From NCBI GenBank assembly GCA_944380095.1, contig CALWGP010000001.1, forward strand, positions 2,524 through 66,523: 64,000 bases of DNA, in the 5' to 3' direction. Origin of the DNA: an uncultured Lachnospiraceae bacterium (lineage in GTDB: Bacteria > Bacillota > Clostridia > Lachnospirales > Lachnospiraceae). This document shows positions 1-53,717 of the stretch, in pieces (within the stretch, counting starts at the first letter, position 1; every line of letters begins with the position of its first letter). A program made the translations under genes and the position numbers. The notes below the pieces were generated by a model, which made no database searches, was not told where the DNA came from, and worked only from the letters and a program-made list of their open reading frames with translations.

Positions 1-832
1 CTTCCTGGGCGTCAATCACTTCCGCGCCGGTTTCCTGCGCATCCTGGCTTTCCTGCGCGGACTCGTTTTCCGCTTCCGCAAGCGCTTCCCCGACTTCCAC
101 GGTCAGGTCGTCTTTCATCTGTGCCAGATATTCGTAGAGCTCCTCGTTTTCCTGAACCGCATCATTGAAAGCCACCTGCACCCGGTTCATCAGGTCCACC
201 ACGTCATCCTGGGCGGAAATCTCTTCCAGATAGAGGTTTACATTCTCATCCACTTCTCCTTCATGGATATAGTAGCTGCCGTCTTCCCGGGCGTAGACCA
301 GGTAGGGGCTCACACCGGGCACCATCGTATCCATATCCTTAAACTTCACTTCATAAGAAGCGTACACCACGAAAGAATTCTCTGCAGGCCCCTTTTTCGT
401 ATAACATTTCAGCTCGTTATACGATTCAATATAGTTGCTCATCTTCTGCAGATAAATCAGGTTCTCCTCATCAATGGAATCCACCAGGGTCCGGATCTTC
501 TCCGTATCCTGGTCGGTAACCGCCTGATAATATTCCGAAATCAGGGCGTTCACTTCCGGATAAGCGTCCTCTTCCAGAGGCACCGCCGCCGTCTCCTGAC
601 TTTCCTGCGTTACCGCGCTCTCTGCAGGAACGCTCTCATCCGCCTCCTGCGCTGCGCCCGTGGAAGTCGTGCTGGTAGACCTGCCGGCAATAATCCCGAT
701 CACAATCGCCGCTGCAATAATCACCACAGCGATCACGCCAAGCATAACCGTAACCATCCTGTTCTCCCGCAGAAAACGGAAGAAGGATTTCCATTCATTC
801 TTTTTTTCTGACTGCTTCTTCTGTTCGCTCAT
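1..832 (-). CDS. Membrane-anchored acidic extracytoplasmic protein, 3' end outside the window (possibly an SH3b-domain protein)
   Basis: Hand translation from ATG at 832: MSEQKKQSEKKNEWKSFFRFLRENRMVTVMLGVIAVVIIAAAIVIG, one TM helix, then a Glu/Asp-rich region. The frame appears open to the window edge, so it is absent from the ORF track. Confidence 0.75.
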   Translation of the reverse strand, partial: MSEQKKQSEKKNEWKSFFRFLRENRMVTVMLGVIAVVIIAAAIVIGIIAGRSTSTTSTGAAQEADESVPAESAVTQESQETAAVPLEEDAYPEVNALISEYYQAVTDQDTEKIRTLVDSIDEENLIYLQKMSNYIESYNELKCYTKKGPAENSFVVYASYEVKFKDMDTMVPGVSPYLVYAREDGSYYIHEGEVDENVNLYLEEISAQDDVVDLMNRVQVAFNDAVQENEELYEYLAQMKDDLTVEVGEALAEAENESAQESQDAQETGAEVIDAQE

Positions 833-1159: not shown

Positions 1160-1891
1160 TTACAAAACCCGGATCTCTCTTTTTTCCCAATCATAGTAGT
1201 AAACGGATTCCGAAAGGAACTTTTCCCGGTCCTGCATCCTGCTGTTGGCATGGGCGACCATCCCGTAAAGCTGCCTTTTTGTTTCCCTTCCTCCTTCCGG
1301 CAGAAGAATCACCTCATGGACGCTGGAAGGCAGAATATAGAAACTGCGTCCTACCTGCCCGGCAAATCCGTCCGCTACCCCCGGATAAAGCAGGGAGACT
1401 GCTCCGAAAAGCCAGCTTTCGTTTCCCAAAACCCACATCGGCTGCAGGCCGCTTCTTTCCCGCATTTTTTCCCTGAGGCGCTGTGCCAGCACCTGCGCCA
1501 CCTGGTCCAGAATTTTTCCCTCCGTATCGGGGAACCGCTCTGCAAGCAGATGTTTCAGGACACTGCGGACGGATCCGCTCACCGGGCTCTCCATCAGAAA
1601 ATCCAGTCTGTACAGTCTGGGAGGGAACAGGTTTTGCATATTGGAAAAAACTTCTTTAAAAAGTTCCTCCTGCCCGATCCCCCAGCAGTCCATCCTCTGA
1701 AAAGTGACCGGGGACCCGGCCAGCTTTCGCCCGTTCTTTCGTTCAAAAAAGCAGGGGATCACATCCAGATCCGCAAACGCCCTTCTGTAGGGGACATCCG
1801 GCAGCAGCATCCTCCGCCCTGTCTGGATCAGGCGGCAGGCCACGTAGGGCCTGGCCCGCTCAAAGCTGAGAAAGAAATCATCCTTTTGCAT
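1160..1891 (-). CDS. DUF5688-like protein of unknown function
   Basis: C-terminal motif FYILPSSVHEVILLP...FLSESVYYYD is typical of DUF5688; start chosen at the ATG of MQKDD. Confidence 0.65.
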   Translation of the reverse strand: MQKDDFFLSFERARPYVACRLIQTGRRMLLPDVPYRRAFADLDVIPCFFERKNGRKLAGSPVTFQRMDCWGIGQEELFKEVFSNMQNLFPPRLYRLDFLMESPVSGSVRSVLKHLLAERFPDTEGKILDQVAQVLAQRLREKMRERSGLQPMWVLGNESWLFGAVSLLYPGVADGFAGQVGRSFYILPSSVHEVILLPEGGRETKRQLYGMVAHANSRMQDREKFLSESVYYYDWEKREIRVL

Positions 1892-48394: not shown

Positions 48395-50011
48395 TCAGAT
48401 TTCCCTGATGGCCTTGCGCAGCCCCAGCACATAGGTAGGGGAAACGGAAAGCTCATCAATTCCCATATCAATAAAGGTCTTGGTCAGGGTCGTGTCGCTT
48501 GCCAGCTCTCCGCAGATGCCGACCCATGCGCCGCCCTTGTGGCCGTTCTCTATTGTCATCTGAATCATCCGCAGCACTGCCGGATGGTGGGAATCATAAA
48601 TGTTGTCCAGGCTCTGGTTCTGCCTGTCGATCGCCAGCGTATACTGGGTCAGATCGTTGGTGCCGATGCTGAAAAACTCCACTTCTTTCGCCAGCTCTTC
48701 GCTGACCATAACCGCTGCGGGCGTTTCCACCATAATCCCCAGCTCCACCTGGTTAAAGCTGATCCCTTCGTGGGTCAGTTCGGTCTTTACTTCTTCTACA
48801 ATCTCCTTGATCCTTTGGATCTCGGAAACGGAAATGATCATGGGAAACATAATGGCCGCTGTGCCGAACGCGGACGCACGGTAAATGGCGCGCAGCTGCG
48901 TCTTGAAAATATTCACCCTGTCCAGGCAGATCCGGATCGCGCGGTAACCCATGGCGGGATTTTCTTCCTTGGGCAGTTCAAAATAGTCCACCTGTTTGTC
49001 TGCGCCGATGTCCAAGGTACGGATAATCACCTTTTTGCCGCCCATACGGGAGAGCACTTCTTTATAGATTTCAAACTGCTCTTCCTCCGTCGGATAGTCA
49101 TCGCGGCCCAGATAGATAAATTCGCTTCTAAACAGGCCGATGCCGCCCGCGTCATTGGCCAGCACCTTATCCACATCCTGGGTATTCCCGATATTGGCAT
49201 AGACGTTGATGCGGCGCCCGTCGGTCGTCACATTGTCCTTGCCGATCAGCTTCTGCAGTTCCGTCCTCTCTTTTTCATAGTCCATTTTTTTGCGGATCAT
49301 CTTCTGGGCCATTCCCTCATCCGGATTGATGATGAATGTCCCGTCGATTCCGTCCACAACGGCCTGCACGCCGTTGTACTCCTCCAAAAGGGCCACATCC
49401 GTCTTCACCAGCGCCGGGATATTCATGGAGCGGGCCAGGATCGCGGTGTGGGAATTGGCGGAACCGTTCTTGGTAACAAAAGCCAGGATCTTGCTTTTAT
49501 CCAGCTGGACCGTTTCGCTGGGAGATAAGTCGTCCGCCAGCAAAATCACCGGCGACTCGGAAGCAATCCCGCCTTCCACAATACCTGCCAAAACATTTAC
49601 CACCCGTTTGGAAATATCCAGCACGTCTATGGAACGCGCTTTCATGTATTCATCGTCCATGGAAGCAAATGCCGCCGAAAAATTGTCTCCCGTAATGCTC
49701 ACCGCATATTCCGCATTGACTTTGTCGTCGCGGATCATGCTGCGGATGGAGTCCAGATAGTCTCCGTCGTCCAGCATCATCTTATGCACGTCGAAAATCA
49801 TCGCCTGCTCTTCGCCCGCTTCCTCAAGTGCCTTATGGTACAGGCTGTCCAGCTGCTGCGTAGCCGTTTCCTTGGCAAGCTCGAACCTTGCGATCTCCGC
49901 CTCGGTATCTTCAATCTGTTTCTTTTCCAGGACATATTCCTGCTTTTTGTACAGATAAATTTTGCCGATGGCAACGCCCTTTAAAACACTCTTGCCGGAA
50001 CAAATAATCAT
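48395..50011 (-). CDS. ptsI: PTS enzyme I
   Basis: SHTAILARS, GIGLFRSEF, IRTLDIGADK, MGYRAIR, IGTNDLTQY, GICGE. Confidence 0.95.
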   Translation of the reverse strand: MIICSGKSVLKGVAIGKIYLYKKQEYVLEKKQIEDTEAEIARFELAKETATQQLDSLYHKALEEAGEEQAMIFDVHKMMLDDGDYLDSIRSMIRDDKVNAEYAVSITGDNFSAAFASMDDEYMKARSIDVLDISKRVVNVLAGIVEGGIASESPVILLADDLSPSETVQLDKSKILAFVTKNGSANSHTAILARSMNIPALVKTDVALLEEYNGVQAVVDGIDGTFIINPDEGMAQKMIRKKMDYEKERTELQKLIGKDNVTTDGRRINVYANIGNTQDVDKVLANDAGGIGLFRSEFIYLGRDDYPTEEEQFEIYKEVLSRMGGKKVIIRTLDIGADKQVDYFELPKEENPAMGYRAIRICLDRVNIFKTQLRAIYRASAFGTAAIMFPMIISVSEIQRIKEIVEEVKTELTHEGISFNQVELGIMVETPAAVMVSEELAKEVEFFSIGTNDLTQYTLAIDRQNQSLDNIYDSHHPAVLRMIQMTIENGHKGGAWVGICGELASDTTLTKTFIDMGIDELSVSPTYVLGLRKAIREI

Positions 50012-50035
50012 ACCTCTCTCCTCCTGCCGGATTCC

Positions 50036-50524
50036 TTACTTGCTTAATTTCATCACTTCGTCCCCGGGCTCAACGTCCCTGCCCGCAAAACTCTCGATAT
50101 TGGTCCAGTTGTCGGAATTACAGATCACCATCGGTGTAATGGTGTCCTTCCCGGACGCCTTGATCTTCTCCAGGTCCGCCTCGATCAGCAGGTCGCCTTT
50201 TTTCACATTCTGATCGGCGGATACTTTAATGGTGAAAGGTTCCCCTTTCAGCTCCACCGTATCCAGGCCGATATGGATCAGCAGTTCTGCCCCGTCCGGC
50301 GTGGTCACGCCCACCGCATGGCCCGTGGGGAACACGGTGCTGACCACCCCGTCGGCCGGCGCATAGACACGCCCGTCGGAAGGAATGATCGCGATCCCTT
50401 TCCCCAGGATCTCTTCTCCGAACGTAGGATCCGGCACCTCACGGATGCTGACGCATTTTCCTTTCATGGGCGCCCCCAGCACGATGCCGTCGTCCTTCTT
50501 TTTAAAAATATCAAAAAGTCCCAT
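50036..50524 (-). CDS. PTS glucose-family EIIA
   Basis: DPTFGEEILGKGIAI, TGHAVG, LIHIGLDTV. Confidence 0.92.
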   Translation of the reverse strand: MGLFDIFKKKDDGIVLGAPMKGKCVSIREVPDPTFGEEILGKGIAIIPSDGRVYAPADGVVSTVFPTGHAVGVTTPDGAELLIHIGLDTVELKGEPFTIKVSADQNVKKGDLLIEADLEKIKASGKDTITPMVICNSDNWTNIESFAGRDVEPGDEVMKLSK

Positions 50525-50548
50525 TCTTTTCTCCTCCTTTCCGAATCT

Positions 50549-51391
50549 CTATGGGGTTTCGATATCGATTCCGGTCGCGTAGCGCAGCTGTATCGTCAGA
50601 TAGATTTTTTCGTCTTCCGTCATCTTACAGCCGCTCACCGACTCTATGTAGTCTTTCATTTTCCCGGCCAGTCCATACTCCCGGCAGCAATGCTCCCTGA
50701 CAAAACGGTTGAAAGCGTCGTCGCCGGACAGCTTTGTGGGAGTGTGCAAAAGCAGCCGGATCAGGATAAACTTCAGATTCGTCACTAGGCGGTCCGTATC
50801 CAGGGAATCCTTCTGGAGCGGACAGGCTACATCTACCATCTCGGTCAGCCGCCGGATCATCTCCGTCATCATCTGCCCGTCCTTCATCTTCATCCCAAAT
50901 TCCGCATTTACCAGATGAAAGGCAATGGAAGCCGCTTCGTCCTCCGGAAGGCGCACGCCGGTCCTTTCCTCAATCAAATCCAGCGCATGCCGGCCGATCC
51001 GGAATTCTTCCGGGTAAAACCGCTTGATCTCTTCATACAGGCCGTTTTCAAACAGCATGCCTTCCTTAAACCTAGTCAGCGCAAAATCAATATGGTCCGT
51101 CAGCGTCAGGTAAACATTCTGGCTCAGCTGCGGCGTCAGCACTTTCCTGGCATGGGAAATGATCTCGTCCGAAACCTGGATGCATACCATCGGCATATTC
51201 GCAAGAAGCTCCTTAAACCGCTCCAGGATGTCCGGACTTTCCAGGCGGAAAATTTTCTCCGTGCCCGTTTCCGAAATCTCCTGGCCGGGCCTTTTCTGAA
51301 ATCCGATCCCTTTTCCCATCACCACGATCTCGCTTCCGTACTCGTCCATCGCAGAGATGACATTGTTGTTGATCACCCTCTGAATCCTCAT
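50549..51391 (-). CDS. BglG/LicT-family PRD antiterminator (PRD2 histidines replaced)
   Basis: CAT domain MRIQRVINNNVI...GKGIGF; PRD1 LTDHI and AFHLVNA; PRD2 VTNLKF and YLTIQL. Confidence 0.9.
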   Translation of the reverse strand: MRIQRVINNNVISAMDEYGSEIVVMGKGIGFQKRPGQEISETGTEKIFRLESPDILERFKELLANMPMVCIQVSDEIISHARKVLTPQLSQNVYLTLTDHIDFALTRFKEGMLFENGLYEEIKRFYPEEFRIGRHALDLIEERTGVRLPEDEAASIAFHLVNAEFGMKMKDGQMMTEMIRRLTEMVDVACPLQKDSLDTDRLVTNLKFILIRLLLHTPTKLSGDDAFNRFVREHCCREYGLAGKMKDYIESVSGCKMTEDEKIYLTIQLRYATGIDIETP

Positions 51392-51425
51392 GCTCCCAGC
51401 CCTTTGCTTTTCCCCTTACATAAGA

Positions 51426-51512
51426 AAAACCAAATTTTATAAATCAATCCACCAAGCATCGTCTGAGATTAACTTATAAAATTTGGTTTTGCCTGCCTGA
51501 CAGTAACAATCC
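51426..51512 (-). promoter_or_regulatory. RAT antiterminator overlapping a conditional terminator
   Basis: Minus strand GGATTGTTACTGTCAGGCAGGCAAAACC (51485-51512) matches the canonical RAT and overlaps a perfect 17-bp inverted repeat (51426-51442 / 51474-51490). Confidence 0.92.
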
Positions 51513-51549
51513 AAAAAGATAGTTCCATATTCATCTTTCAACTGGTTAT

Positions 51550-51578
51550 AGTTTACCAAACAGCGCCCTTGCTGTCAA
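51550..51578 (-). promoter_or_regulatory. SigA promoter of the PTS operon
   Basis: TTGACA-17-TAAACT with extended -10 TG, about 35 nt upstream of the RAT. Confidence 0.75.
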
Positions 51579-51697
51579 GCACATATTGTCATGATTGCAC
51601 CAATCTTCGCATTTTTCCTTCCTGATTTCTGCAAAATATCACAAAATCTTCTGCCGGTTCCTATTGAGCAAAAAGTGTGCGCCTTGGCGCACTCGCA

Positions 51698-51737
51698 TAA
51701 AAAAGAACGGGCTCCTGACCGGGAACCCGCTCTTTTC
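51698..51737 (-). terminator. Intrinsic terminator downstream of the ABC exporter and candidate sRNA
   Basis: GAGCGGGUUCC-loop-GGAGCCCGUUC-U6; the G-U wobbles pair only in minus-strand RNA. Confidence 0.8.
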
Positions 51738-51795
51738 ATTTAAATAAATAGAAAGGAAGAAAAATGAAAAAGTTTTTGGCCTTGCTTTTTACATT
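51698..51795 (-). ncRNA. Candidate sRNA with anti-SD/anti-start-codon tract
   Basis: Repeat array and -10-like TACTAT upstream, terminator downstream, internal CUUUUUCAUUUUUCUUCCUUUCU; inferred, not confirmed. Confidence 0.4.
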
Positions 51796-51810
51796 TTTTA
51801 TAGTACGGGA

Positions 51811-51854
51811 AAAATGTGAGAAAACCATGAGGAAAATGTGACATTTTTGTAAAC
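51811..51854 (-). promoter_or_regulatory. Response-regulator-type binding array (11-bp period)
   Basis: Minus strand GTTTACAaaaa TGTCACAtttt CCTCATGgttt TCTCACAtttt; includes perfect TGACA-N4-TGTAA at 51839-51852. Confidence 0.55.
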
Positions 51855-51857
51855 GTT

Positions 51858-53717
51858 TCAGGCCGTGGTTTTCTCAAACTGGGAGTTGTAAAGCTGGGCG
51901 TAAAAACCGTTCTTTGCCAGCAGCTGTTCATGAGTTCCCTGCTCCACAATATCCCCGTCTTTCATCACCAGGATCACGTCCGCGTCCTTGATGGTGGAAA
52001 GGCGGTGGGCAATGACAAAGCTGGTCCTGCCCTTCATCAGATTATTCATGGCCTTCTGGATCTGGATCTCCGTCCGGGTATCCACCGAACTGGTAGCCTC
52101 GTCCAAAATCAGGATCGGGTTATCCGCCAGGATAGCCCTCGCGATGGTAAGAAGCTGCTTCTGTCCCTGGGAAACATTGGTGGCGTCCTCATTGAGTTCC
52201 ATCTGGTATCCGCCGGGCAGGGTCCGGATAAACCGGTCCGCATGGGCCGCCTTCGCCGCTTCGATCACTTCCTCATCCGTAGCGTCCAGTCTCCCGTAGC
52301 GGATATTTTCCATAATGGTGCCCTCAAACAGCCAGGTATCCTGGAGTACCATGCCAAACAGTTCCCTCAGCTGGCTTCTGTTAAAGGAACGCACATCATG
52401 GCCGTCCACCCGGACGGAGCCGCCGCAGACGTCATAAAAGCGCATCAAAAGTTTTACCATGGTGGTTTTCCCGGCTCCCGTAGGCCCCACGATTGCTACC
52501 ATCTGTCCGGGTTTTACGCTGCAGGAAAAATCGCTGATAATAATTTTATCCGGATTGTATCCGAAACGGACGTGGGAAAATTCCACGCTGCCTTCCATGC
52601 CTTCGATCTGTACGGGATCAGGAACCGTCTGATCTTCTTCCTCTTCCCCCAAAAACTCGAAAACCCGTTCCGCCGCAGCCGCCGTGGACTGCAGCATGTT
52701 GGATACCTGGGCGATCTGGGTAATGGGCTGGGTGAAATTTTTCACATACTGGATAAACGCCTGGATATCTCCTACTTCTATGGCGCCTTTCACCGCCAGG
52801 ACGCTGCCGCTGACCGCCACGGCCACATATCCTAAGTTTCCCACAAAGGTCATAATGGGCTGCATCATGCCGGAAATAAACTGGGATTTCCAGGCGGATT
52901 CATACAGGGTCTGGTTGGTGGCCGCAAACTGCTGCTCTACGGCCACCTCCCGGTTAAAGGCCTTCACCACATTGTGTCCGCTGTAGGTTTCTTCCACCTG
53001 GCCGTTGATCTCACCCAGCGCAGCCTGCTGGGCGGAAAAATACTTCTGGGAATGTTTCACCACCACGCCGATGAGCCCTCCCGATATGGGCAAAATCACC
53101 AGCGCAATCAGCGTCATCAGCGGGCTGATGGACAGCATCATAATCAGGACGCCCACCATGGTGGTAACGGAAGTAATCAGCTGGGTCACGCTCTGGTTCA
53201 GGCTCATTCCCAGCGTATCCACGTCGTTTGTAATGCGGGAGAGCACTTCCCCCACCGTGCGGGACTCAAAATATTTCATGGGCATCCGGTTGATCTTTTC
53301 CGAAATCTCCCGGCGCATCCGGTAACAAAGGTTCTGGGTTGTCCAGGTCATAATCCATCCCTGGAAAAAATTCAAAACGGAACTGATGCAGTAAATCCCC
53401 AGCAAAGTCAGAAGGATCCGCGCGATTTTTTCAAAATCGATCCCGCCGGTGCCTCCCACTTTCGCCACCAGGCCGTTGAACAGCTCCGTAGTCACACGGC
53501 TTAATACCTTCGGCCCTGCAATGTTAAAGATCGTGCTCCCCACCGCAAAGACCATTACGGTGAAAATGGCAATCCTGTATTTTCCCAGATAGGAAAACAG
53601 TTTTTTTACCGTCCCTTTAAAGTCCTTCGCCTTTTCCCCGGGCATCATCCCCCGTCCGGGTCCGTGTCCCGGCCCAGGTCCCGGGCGCCTTGCCGTATTC
53701 CGGGCGTTCTCACTCAT
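51858..53717 (-). CDS. ABC exporter, TMD-NBD half (consensus site)
   Basis: Six TM segments, GPTGAGKTT, VSQGQKQ, ILDEATSS, IAHRL. Confidence 0.92.
   Translation of the reverse strand: MSENARNTARRPGPGPGHGPGRGMMPGEKAKDFKGTVKKLFSYLGKYRIAIFTVMVFAVGSTIFNIAGPKVLSRVTTELFNGLVAKVGGTGGIDFEKIARILLTLLGIYCISSVLNFFQGWIMTWTTQNLCYRMRREISEKINRMPMKYFESRTVGEVLSRITNDVDTLGMSLNQSVTQLITSVTTMVGVLIMMLSISPLMTLIALVILPISGGLIGVVVKHSQKYFSAQQAALGEINGQVEETYSGHNVVKAFNREVAVEQQFAATNQTLYESAWKSQFISGMMQPIMTFVGNLGYVAVAVSGSVLAVKGAIEVGDIQAFIQYVKNFTQPITQIAQVSNMLQSTAAAAERVFEFLGEEEEDQTVPDPVQIEGMEGSVEFSHVRFGYNPDKIIISDFSCSVKPGQMVAIVGPTGAGKTTMVKLLMRFYDVCGGSVRVDGHDVRSFNRSQLRELFGMVLQDTWLFEGTIMENIRYGRLDATDEEVIEAAKAAHADRFIRTLPGGYQMELNEDATNVSQGQKQLLTIARAILADNPILILDEATSSVDTRTEIQIQKAMNNLMKGRTSFVIAHRLSTIKDADVILVMKDGDIVEQGTHEQLLAKNGFYAQLYNSQFEKTTA

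Follow-up and report, generated by a model that had tools for sequence, protein, structure and literature searches.

Which described systems come closest to a short transcription unit that seems built to block translation initiation? The csRNAs of Streptococcus (ccnA-E, CiaRH) are 51-202 nt long and contain an unpaired part that is complementary to the SD and AUG (Marx et al. 2010, PMC3091779). Their promoters carry the motif NTTAAG-N5-TTTAAG, with an invariant G, 10 nt upstream of the -10 (PMC3091779). The LhrC family of Listeria monocytogenes is driven by LisRK under envelope stress (Sievers et al. 2014, PMC4132741), and its CU-rich single-stranded motifs bind the ribosome-binding sites of the lapB, oppA, and tcsA mRNAs (PMC4132741; PMC5880928). 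Control of htrA is exerted by CssRS in Bacillus, by CiaRH in Streptococcus, and by LisRK in Listeria (PMC12826053), and the canonical B. subtilis CssR box is TTTTCACA (PMC6749698). The design that joins HtrA to an anti-SD RNA is, then, already known from Streptococcus and Listeria. The CssRS secretion-stress regulon of B. subtilis includes htrA, htrB, and cssRS; to our knowledge no sRNA is known to belong to it, and hardly any small RNA regulators of gut Lachnospiraceae have been charted.

The locus considered here lies on the minus strand of a 64,000-nucleotide stretch of DNA from an uncultured Lachnospiraceae bacterium; this whole stretch is what we call the window. The locus is very probably a real sRNA gene of Eisenbergiella, with a predicted product of ~96 nt. 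We propose that this product is a stand-alone, trans-acting sRNA that forms the RNA arm of an htrA-type envelope/secretion stress regulon and acts by blocking initiation regions, a reading that we consider likely.

Promoter, RNA body, and distribution of the unit

The promoter of the putative sRNA gene starts directly behind an ABC exporter gene (ABC_membrane plus ABC_tran). The stop codon TGA of that gene occupies 51860-51858 on the minus strand, and box 1 begins 4 nt after it. Four boxes, TTTACA (51853-51848), GTCACA (51842-51837), CTCATG (51831-51826), and CTCACA (51820-51815), follow one another on the minus strand with an exact 11-bp period, and together they make up an activator-type array in place of a -35 (51815..51853, minus), recognized from the sequence and its orthologues. 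A 9-nt gap separates box 4 from the -10 hexamer TACTAT (51800..51805, minus), which is supported by sequence, orthologues, and a promoter scan. A previous sequence-only reading of this DNA had described both the four 11-bp-period repeats behind the ABC stop codon and, 9 nt after them, the -10-like TACTAT at 51805-51800, and both descriptions hold on the minus strand. In the 15 orthologues the box cores TTnAyA / CAyA / CAT / TCAyA are kept gap-free and at fixed spacing to the -10, the variants of which are TAAGAT, TATGAT, TATCAT, and TATTGT. A consensus promoter scan found no sigma-70 -35/-10 pair on the minus strand at this promoter; the missing -35 fits a promoter that requires an activator. 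Direct-repeat boxes placed one helical turn apart near the -10 are the layout of promoters activated by the OmpR/PhoB family.

The sequence-only reading had further singled out a perfect TNACA-N4-TGTAA within the repeats and had assigned the array to the PhoP/BceR/CiaR type. The palindrome is indeed present, as TGACATTTTTGTAA at 51839-51852, and the motif has two matches in the window versus 0.11 expected; however, it reads on the + strand and its TGT half varies among the orthologues. Because that half is not kept, the conserved promoter feature is, judged from the orthologues, the direct repeats and not a BceR-type palindrome. The response-regulator-type layout stands, but the BceR palindrome is not conserved and the boxes, rather than being the TTTAAG of CiaR, are TCACA-like and near to the CssR box TTTTCACA of B. 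subtilis (PMC6749698). Two promoter-like matches on the + strand, TTGGCC-17-TATAGT and TTTACA-16-AAAAAT (51776-51815), lie inside the sRNA gene; both point antisense into the ABC 3' end, and neither is kept in the other contexts.

If transcription begins at the A run located 6-7 nt past the -10 and stops within the U-run of the terminator, the predicted RNA spans 51699..51794 (minus, ~96 nt), and its predicted fold has an energy of -30.1 kcal/mol (z = -4.4). An A-rich stretch follows the -10, and then comes a CU-rich tract that reads ACTTTTTCATTTTTCTTCCTTTC at 51773-51751 on the minus strand. Its exact complement on the + strand is GAAAGGAAGAAAAATGAAAAAGT, in agreement with the earlier description of the tract as the exact complement of a generic strong initiation region; the tract mirrors an SD, a spacer, and AUG-AAA-AAG. 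Alignment of the 15 sequences shows that all 23 columns of this tract are identical (the 23-mer ACUUUUUCAUUUUUCUUCCUUUC, 51751..51773, minus), while its flanks vary and carry indels. The 23-mer includes the anti-start CAU at 51766-51764 and the anti-SD CUUCCUUUC at 51759-51751 (both minus), and the predicted fold leaves both in a largely unpaired stretch. A 5' hairpin (51752..51797, minus; MFE fold) may possibly form, in which the A-rich 5' end would pair with CUUUUUCAUUUUU and CUUCCUUUCUA would stay unpaired. In the 15 sequences 84% of its cells are paired, and since its 3' side is invariant this hairpin cannot display compensatory change.

The RNA is bounded by an intrinsic terminator, a 16-bp stem plus a U-run (51699..51737, minus), identified by fold and covariation. 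The stem pairs 51737-51722 with 51715-51700, and the U-run TTCTTTTTT (51707-51699) overlaps its 3' arm. Both-side changes are seen in 10 of 15 pairs, and 93.8% of cells are paired in the 15 sequences. The terminator had been called strand-specific, which is confirmed by this covariation and by G·U and U·G pairs that exist only in the minus-strand RNA; the + strand would have C·A mismatches in their place. A second terminator-like hairpin (GTGCGC CAAG GCGCAC plus T5; 51670..51692, minus) lies downstream of the RNA and before the promoter of the next gene, outside the conserved unit. The 23-nt stretch at this place (51670-51692), with GTGCGCCAAGGCGCAC plus T5, is found again without a mismatch (100% identity) on several contigs of the relatives G010 and G022, which could make it a REP-like element or a terminator present in repeated copies.

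How widely is the unit distributed? A covariance model (R1) built from the 15 sequences finds one copy each in 15 of 20 Eisenbergiella species genomes, scoring 98 bits at the window locus and 75-110 bits in the 14 other species. A DNA search recovered the region spanning box 1 through the terminator from numerous Eisenbergiella genomes with 72-92% identity, and the ABC gene was frequently missing next to it. Five of the 20 species genomes do not have the RNA, though they possess both htrA and the two-component system discussed below. In a scan of 185,579 species genomes, the exact 23-mer turned up in only 15 stretches, once in each genome: 14 are Eisenbergiella/Lachnospiraceae MAG stretches, and one is from Helicobacter marmotae. 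Paralogous copies of the sRNA, for which the sequence-only reading had proposed a scan, were sought in this genome and none was found. Among 150-400 other Lachnospiraceae genera (BLAST, 300 genera; covariance model, 150), one credible homologue was detected, in G111, with the same spacing from boxes to -10, a terminator, and both the anti-AUG and the anti-SD part, with 1 extra nt between the two. The other BLAST and covariance-model matches outside the genus are real gene starts read backwards and were rejected. On these searches the range of the RNA is narrow, comprising Eisenbergiella plus at least one other genus.

The expectations that repeats and anti-SD tract would be kept in related species, and that a homologue search would reveal covariation, are both borne out: repeats and tract are conserved in 15 genomes, the unit is kept in 15 species, and its terminator covaries. 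Conservation of the whole unit in 15 species genomes places it, by sequence comparison, beyond chance, and the conservation of the unit, its strand, its terminator, its invariant tract, and its shared promoter layout are supported by this analysis. A search of Rfam 15 with 50000-53000 (E up to 10) returned no family at threshold and no csRNA match; L20_leader (34 bits vs 58.7) and LhrC (21.7 bits vs a gathering score of 110) were rejected as terminator/U-rich look-alikes.

Proposed pairing, candidate targets, and rival explanations

We propose the following sequence of events. First, a stress-activated regulator would bind the boxes and recruit RNA polymerase to the -10. Second, the RNA would expose CUUCCUUUC and perhaps, once the weak 5' hairpin has opened, also CAU plus the U-run. 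Third, the CU-rich tract would pair with initiation regions of the type AGGAAG-N4-AUG-AAA-AAG, and this pairing would block ribosome loading, mainly on mRNAs of exported proteins or lipoproteins that start with Met-Lys-Lys. The RNA would in this way probably lower the translation of exported proteins by pairing at ribosome-binding sites. The transcript itself, the acting regulator, the inducing signal, the targets, and the direction of regulation are elements of this scheme that we infer from the DNA. It is conceivable, if doubtful, that the RNA goes further and brakes a whole mRNA class, that of Met-Lys-Lys signal-peptide starts, so that a secretion-stress two-component system would bring down the synthesis of exported proteins in bulk and raise HtrA.

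What might the RNA pair with? Elsewhere in the genome the complement of the 23-mer does not occur with fewer than 4 mismatches, the nearest sites having 4-5, and predicted duplex energies form a continuum in which no target stands out. Signal-peptide-like N-termini account for 31% of the 100 best-pairing starts versus 12.9% of 1,846 plausible starts (p ~8e-7, with a crude classifier), an enrichment of exported proteins that is partly built into a tract mirroring AUG-AAA-AAG. The best-pairing starts include those of a Bmp/PnrA-like (G000 C4:16114) and an SBP_bac_3 (C34:2098) binding lipoprotein. Pairing with the Bmp orthologue is kept in five of seven RNA-bearing genomes and weak in the other two, and it is also weak in two genomes that have no RNA.

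Since seed pairing does not usually demand as many as 23 invariant bases, the tract may be under a further constraint, for instance from a protein partner. This excess of invariance (23 of 23 bases), together with the finding of no single strong target, is the attraction of a different explanation: a protein- or ribosome-binding RNA, in which the 23-mer would be a site for a chaperone or ribosomal protein or else a decoy of the 16S rRNA 3' tail CCUUUCUA. The end of the tract presumably resembles the Firmicute 16S rRNA 3' end, which would suit such a decoy. However, the 1-nt insertion in G111 is easier to reconcile with two pairing modules than with a single rigid protein site, and the tract mirrors a working initiation region exactly. 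The similar designs of the csRNAs and LhrC, moreover, act by pairing (PMC3091779, PMC4132741). We therefore regard a binding RNA of this sort as improbable.

The trans-acting, pairing sRNA that we favor has also to be weighed against its gene neighborhood. In the 15 genomes the upstream gene falls into five different contexts, with the unit intact in all of them: it is an ABC exporter gene in four species, amylase-like in three, GroEL in two, GH36-like in two, and GH3-like in two or three. In 9 of the 15 genomes the unit is followed by pepF (Peptidase_M3 plus M3_N) in the same orientation. In the window the next gene encodes a licT-type antiterminator (CAT_RBD plus PRD; 50549-51391) with its own promoter and a RAT-like leader. 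This leader occupies 51405-51544 on the minus strand (Rfam bglG-cis-reg, 41 bits vs a gathering score of 80), and the TG-extended promoter of the licT-type gene starts at 51578. Because the upstream and downstream genes vary and the neighbors have promoters of their own, the unit is neither the leader of a neighbor nor the mere tail of the ABC operon. It possesses its own promoter and its own terminator, kept independently of the flanking genes and without a conserved ORF, as is generally expected of a trans-acting sRNA.

Two cis-acting explanations are bound up with these neighbors. The recurrence of pepF in 9 of 15 genomes could mean that the unit is a leader or insulator of pepF, serving as an attenuator or in read-through control. 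Yet every pepF-adjacent genome has a sigma-A promoter between the terminator and pepF (e.g., TTGACA-N17-TAAAAT), and at least 5 genomes, as well as another genus, keep the unit in full without pepF behind it. No alternative antiterminator pairing is apparent either, and the tract finds no match in the pepF start regions. All of this makes a role in pepF control quite improbable. The second explanation arises from the window itself, where no terminator lies between the ABC stop codon and box 1, 4 nt further on; therefore, transcription of the ABC genes must continue across the unit as far as its terminator. Could the unit lack a promoter and represent nothing more than the 3' UTR and terminator of the ABC exporter operon, or else a processing product of that operon? 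The sequence-only reading had allowed for such a release of a 3'-UTR-derived RNA, but this is possible only in the four species (4 of 15 genomes) that have ABC genes upstream, since elsewhere the unit does not follow ABC genes. Furthermore, in at least G014, where the unit comes after groEL, it is preceded by a terminator-like hairpin and a T-run, and the boxes and -10 are kept at a fixed spacing that is common to other promoters. An origin as an ABC operon tail is accordingly very improbable.

The strand opposite the tract reads SD-ATG-AAA-AAG and opens a 25-codon ORF (MKKFLALLF..., 51764..51841, +). Immediately after codon 4, an A-run carries indels of 1-2 nt that shift the frame between close relatives, giving ORF lengths of 13, 16, 18, 20-22, 25, 36, and >49 aa (the extracted stretch ends before some of the frames do) and of 5 aa in G111. 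No conserved + strand promoter was found for this ORF, the hairpin and the SD being separated by only 15-25 variable nt. That it encodes a functional hydrophobic peptide of 25 aa, perhaps a type I toxin to which the minus-strand RNA would be the antisense partner, is barely credible in spite of the strong SD and ATG and the hydrophobic N-terminus, since the frame is broken by indels among near-identical relatives, no + strand promoter is conserved, and the G·U pairs of the hairpin become C·A mismatches on the + strand; we rejected the sORF/toxin on account of the broken frame and judge from these frameshifts that the ORF is not a gene.

The reading that we prefer is thus close to the one first put forward for this locus, namely a self-standing, csRNA-like sRNA of ~95 nt, which appears well founded in view of its varied contexts, covarying terminator, invariant tract, and shared promoter layout.

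Shared promoter layout and candidate regulator

Is the promoter layout of the sRNA gene found elsewhere in the genome? We expressed it as a box rule, [TAG]CA[CT][AG]-N6-[TAG]CA[CT]A-N9-TAnnnT, which the two proximal sRNA boxes fit. Seven sites in the genome obey the rule: the sRNA, three C-rich RNAs, htrA2, a gene for an 82-aa membrane protein, and a two-component operon. This count is not above that of shuffled sequence (2-8); the argument for a regulon rests on the identity of the seven sites, not on their number, and all seven sit at what look like plausible promoters of the set. A PWM derived from the 15 orthologous promoters yielded, in a scan of the genome, two clear secondary matches, in C8 (81-aa ORF) and C13 (ABC ATPase), and, at lower rank, two sites that are each followed by a short RNA of another kind. 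With a PWM trained on the promoters of the C-rich RNAs, this genome's copies left out, the sRNA promoter ranks 13th of 5.07 million positions and in the same register; an htrA-trained PWM did not have the sRNA promoter in register among its top 14 matches.

The C-rich RNAs make up a second anti-SD family, built of a 5' hairpin GAUAG...CUAUC, then UCCCCCCUCAUAAG, and then a terminator. The family is present in all 20 genomes of the genus in 1-3 copies, of which this genome (G000) has three, at C37:8004-8169 (-), C116:~671-800 (+), and C150:~1363-1480 (+), and it has no match in Rfam. Its promoters are without a -35 and carry phased boxes ending (G)nACAyA-N9-TATGAT. Similarly, an htrA gene on contig C87 (Trypsin_2 plus PDZ) is preceded by 5-6 TC(A/G)CA boxes phased at an 11-bp period (C87:2890-3023, +), the last of them 9 nt before TATACT, and this promoter is kept in 12 species. 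The paralogue htrA2, on contig C11 (-), has two boxes, TCACA-N6-TCACA-N9-TATACT. Thus direct repeats with a 10-11 bp period replace the -35 at a fixed distance from the -10 and are shared among these loci, as befits an htrA-type regulon. A response-regulator-type promoter tied to envelope stress had been suspected from the sRNA locus alone, and the suspicion gains substance from the same layout at htrA, at an OmpR-family operon, and at the second anti-SD family.

The genome scan also returned further promoters with this layout at C8:4776, C13:36510, C81:10419, C115:25, and C27:654, all on the + strand. The genes after them include an 81-aa ORF without a Pfam match, an ABC ATPase, an 82-aa membrane protein, and others, and a 5' leader, GTTCAAAG, is common to C8 and C115. 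Most of the noise in the PWM scans comes from 22 contigs (~83 kb) with less than 40% G+C versus ~53% for the genome, which may be contamination, plasmid, or phage.

Which regulator might act at these promoters? The two-component operon lies on contig C9 (39299-41513, minus) and encodes an RR of 239 aa with Response_reg plus Trans_reg_C domains (OmpR family) and an HK of 491 aa with HAMP, HisKA, and HATPase_c domains and two TM segments, an EnvZ-like build; efp, groES, and groEL come next. Its promoter, TCACA-N6-ACATA-N9-TATACT, is kept in at least 10 species, and this conserved box pair suggests autoregulation, which we consider probable. Because the operon has the same promoter layout as the other loci, we propose it as the best candidate regulator of the sRNA, of both htrA genes, and of the C-rich family. 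In G013 and G014 the sRNA gene is located right after groEL, ~3 kb downstream of the two-component operon; no two-component genes were found next to the other box-bearing loci or htrA. Searches with NCBIfam equivalogs (PhoB, YycF, PieR, and others) gave no hit to the C9 RR at cut-off, and its identity as PhoP/PhoB, WalR, or PieR was rejected, the scores being below the equivalog cut-offs. The type of regulator can tentatively be refined to an htrA-linked system with CssR-like boxes.

Meaning and comparison with csRNAs, LhrC, and CssRS

Taken together, these loci offer a testable circuit in a common gut genus: a candidate sensor/regulator pair, a box, two HtrA proteases, and two families of RNA that mirror ribosome-binding sites. 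If a whole class of Met-Lys-Lys mRNAs were indeed braked, the sRNA and its C-rich sister family would amount to a two-RNA envelope-stress arm in gut Clostridia. Confirmation of the circuit would mean that the pairing of HtrA with anti-SD RNA also arose in Clostridia, with unrelated sequences, and it would open a route to studying how gut anaerobes handle envelope or secretion stress.

How does the Eisenbergiella RNA compare with the csRNAs? Like them, it is a short, terminator-bounded RNA whose promoter has no -35 and carries direct repeats with an 11-bp period just upstream of the -10. At ~96 nt it falls within the 51-202 nt of the csRNAs, and it shares their order of an unpaired anti-SD/AUG region followed by a terminator. 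The csRNA regulator also drives htrA, and the Eisenbergiella htrA has the same promoter layout as the sRNA; in both cases the regulon, putative in Eisenbergiella, contains more than one sRNA gene. Unlike the csRNA promoters, however, the Eisenbergiella promoter has TCACA-like boxes with no TTTAAG pair, four boxes versus two, and 9 nt rather than 10 nt between the last box and the -10. The RNA shows no sequence or Rfam similarity to csRNAs, its host belongs to the Clostridia (Lachnospiraceae), and it is single-copy. Moreover, its tract mirrors a longer stretch, consisting of the SD, the spacer, the AUG, and two Lys codons.

The likeness to LhrC lies in the wiring and in the mode of pairing. LhrC depends on an envelope-stress two-component system that also controls htrA, and its CU-rich motifs act on the mRNAs of surface and binding proteins at the ribosome-binding site, as we propose for the Eisenbergiella RNA. 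In contrast, LhrC is multicopy, its repeated UCCC is absent from the Eisenbergiella RNA, and the latter falls short of the Rfam threshold for LhrC. With respect to CssRS, the likeness is one of boxes and does not extend to an identification of the C9 regulator, which reached no NCBIfam equivalog cut-off: htrA-type genes and the operon of the regulator itself are each preceded by repeats of the box core (a T-tract plus TCACA), and the sensor has an EnvZ-like build. We propose that the Eisenbergiella sRNA represents an undescribed family that, on its sequence features, is csRNA- and LhrC-like in build and wiring and a member of neither, and the module to which it would belong looks like an envelope/secretion stress regulon of the CssRS/CiaRH/LisRK kind.
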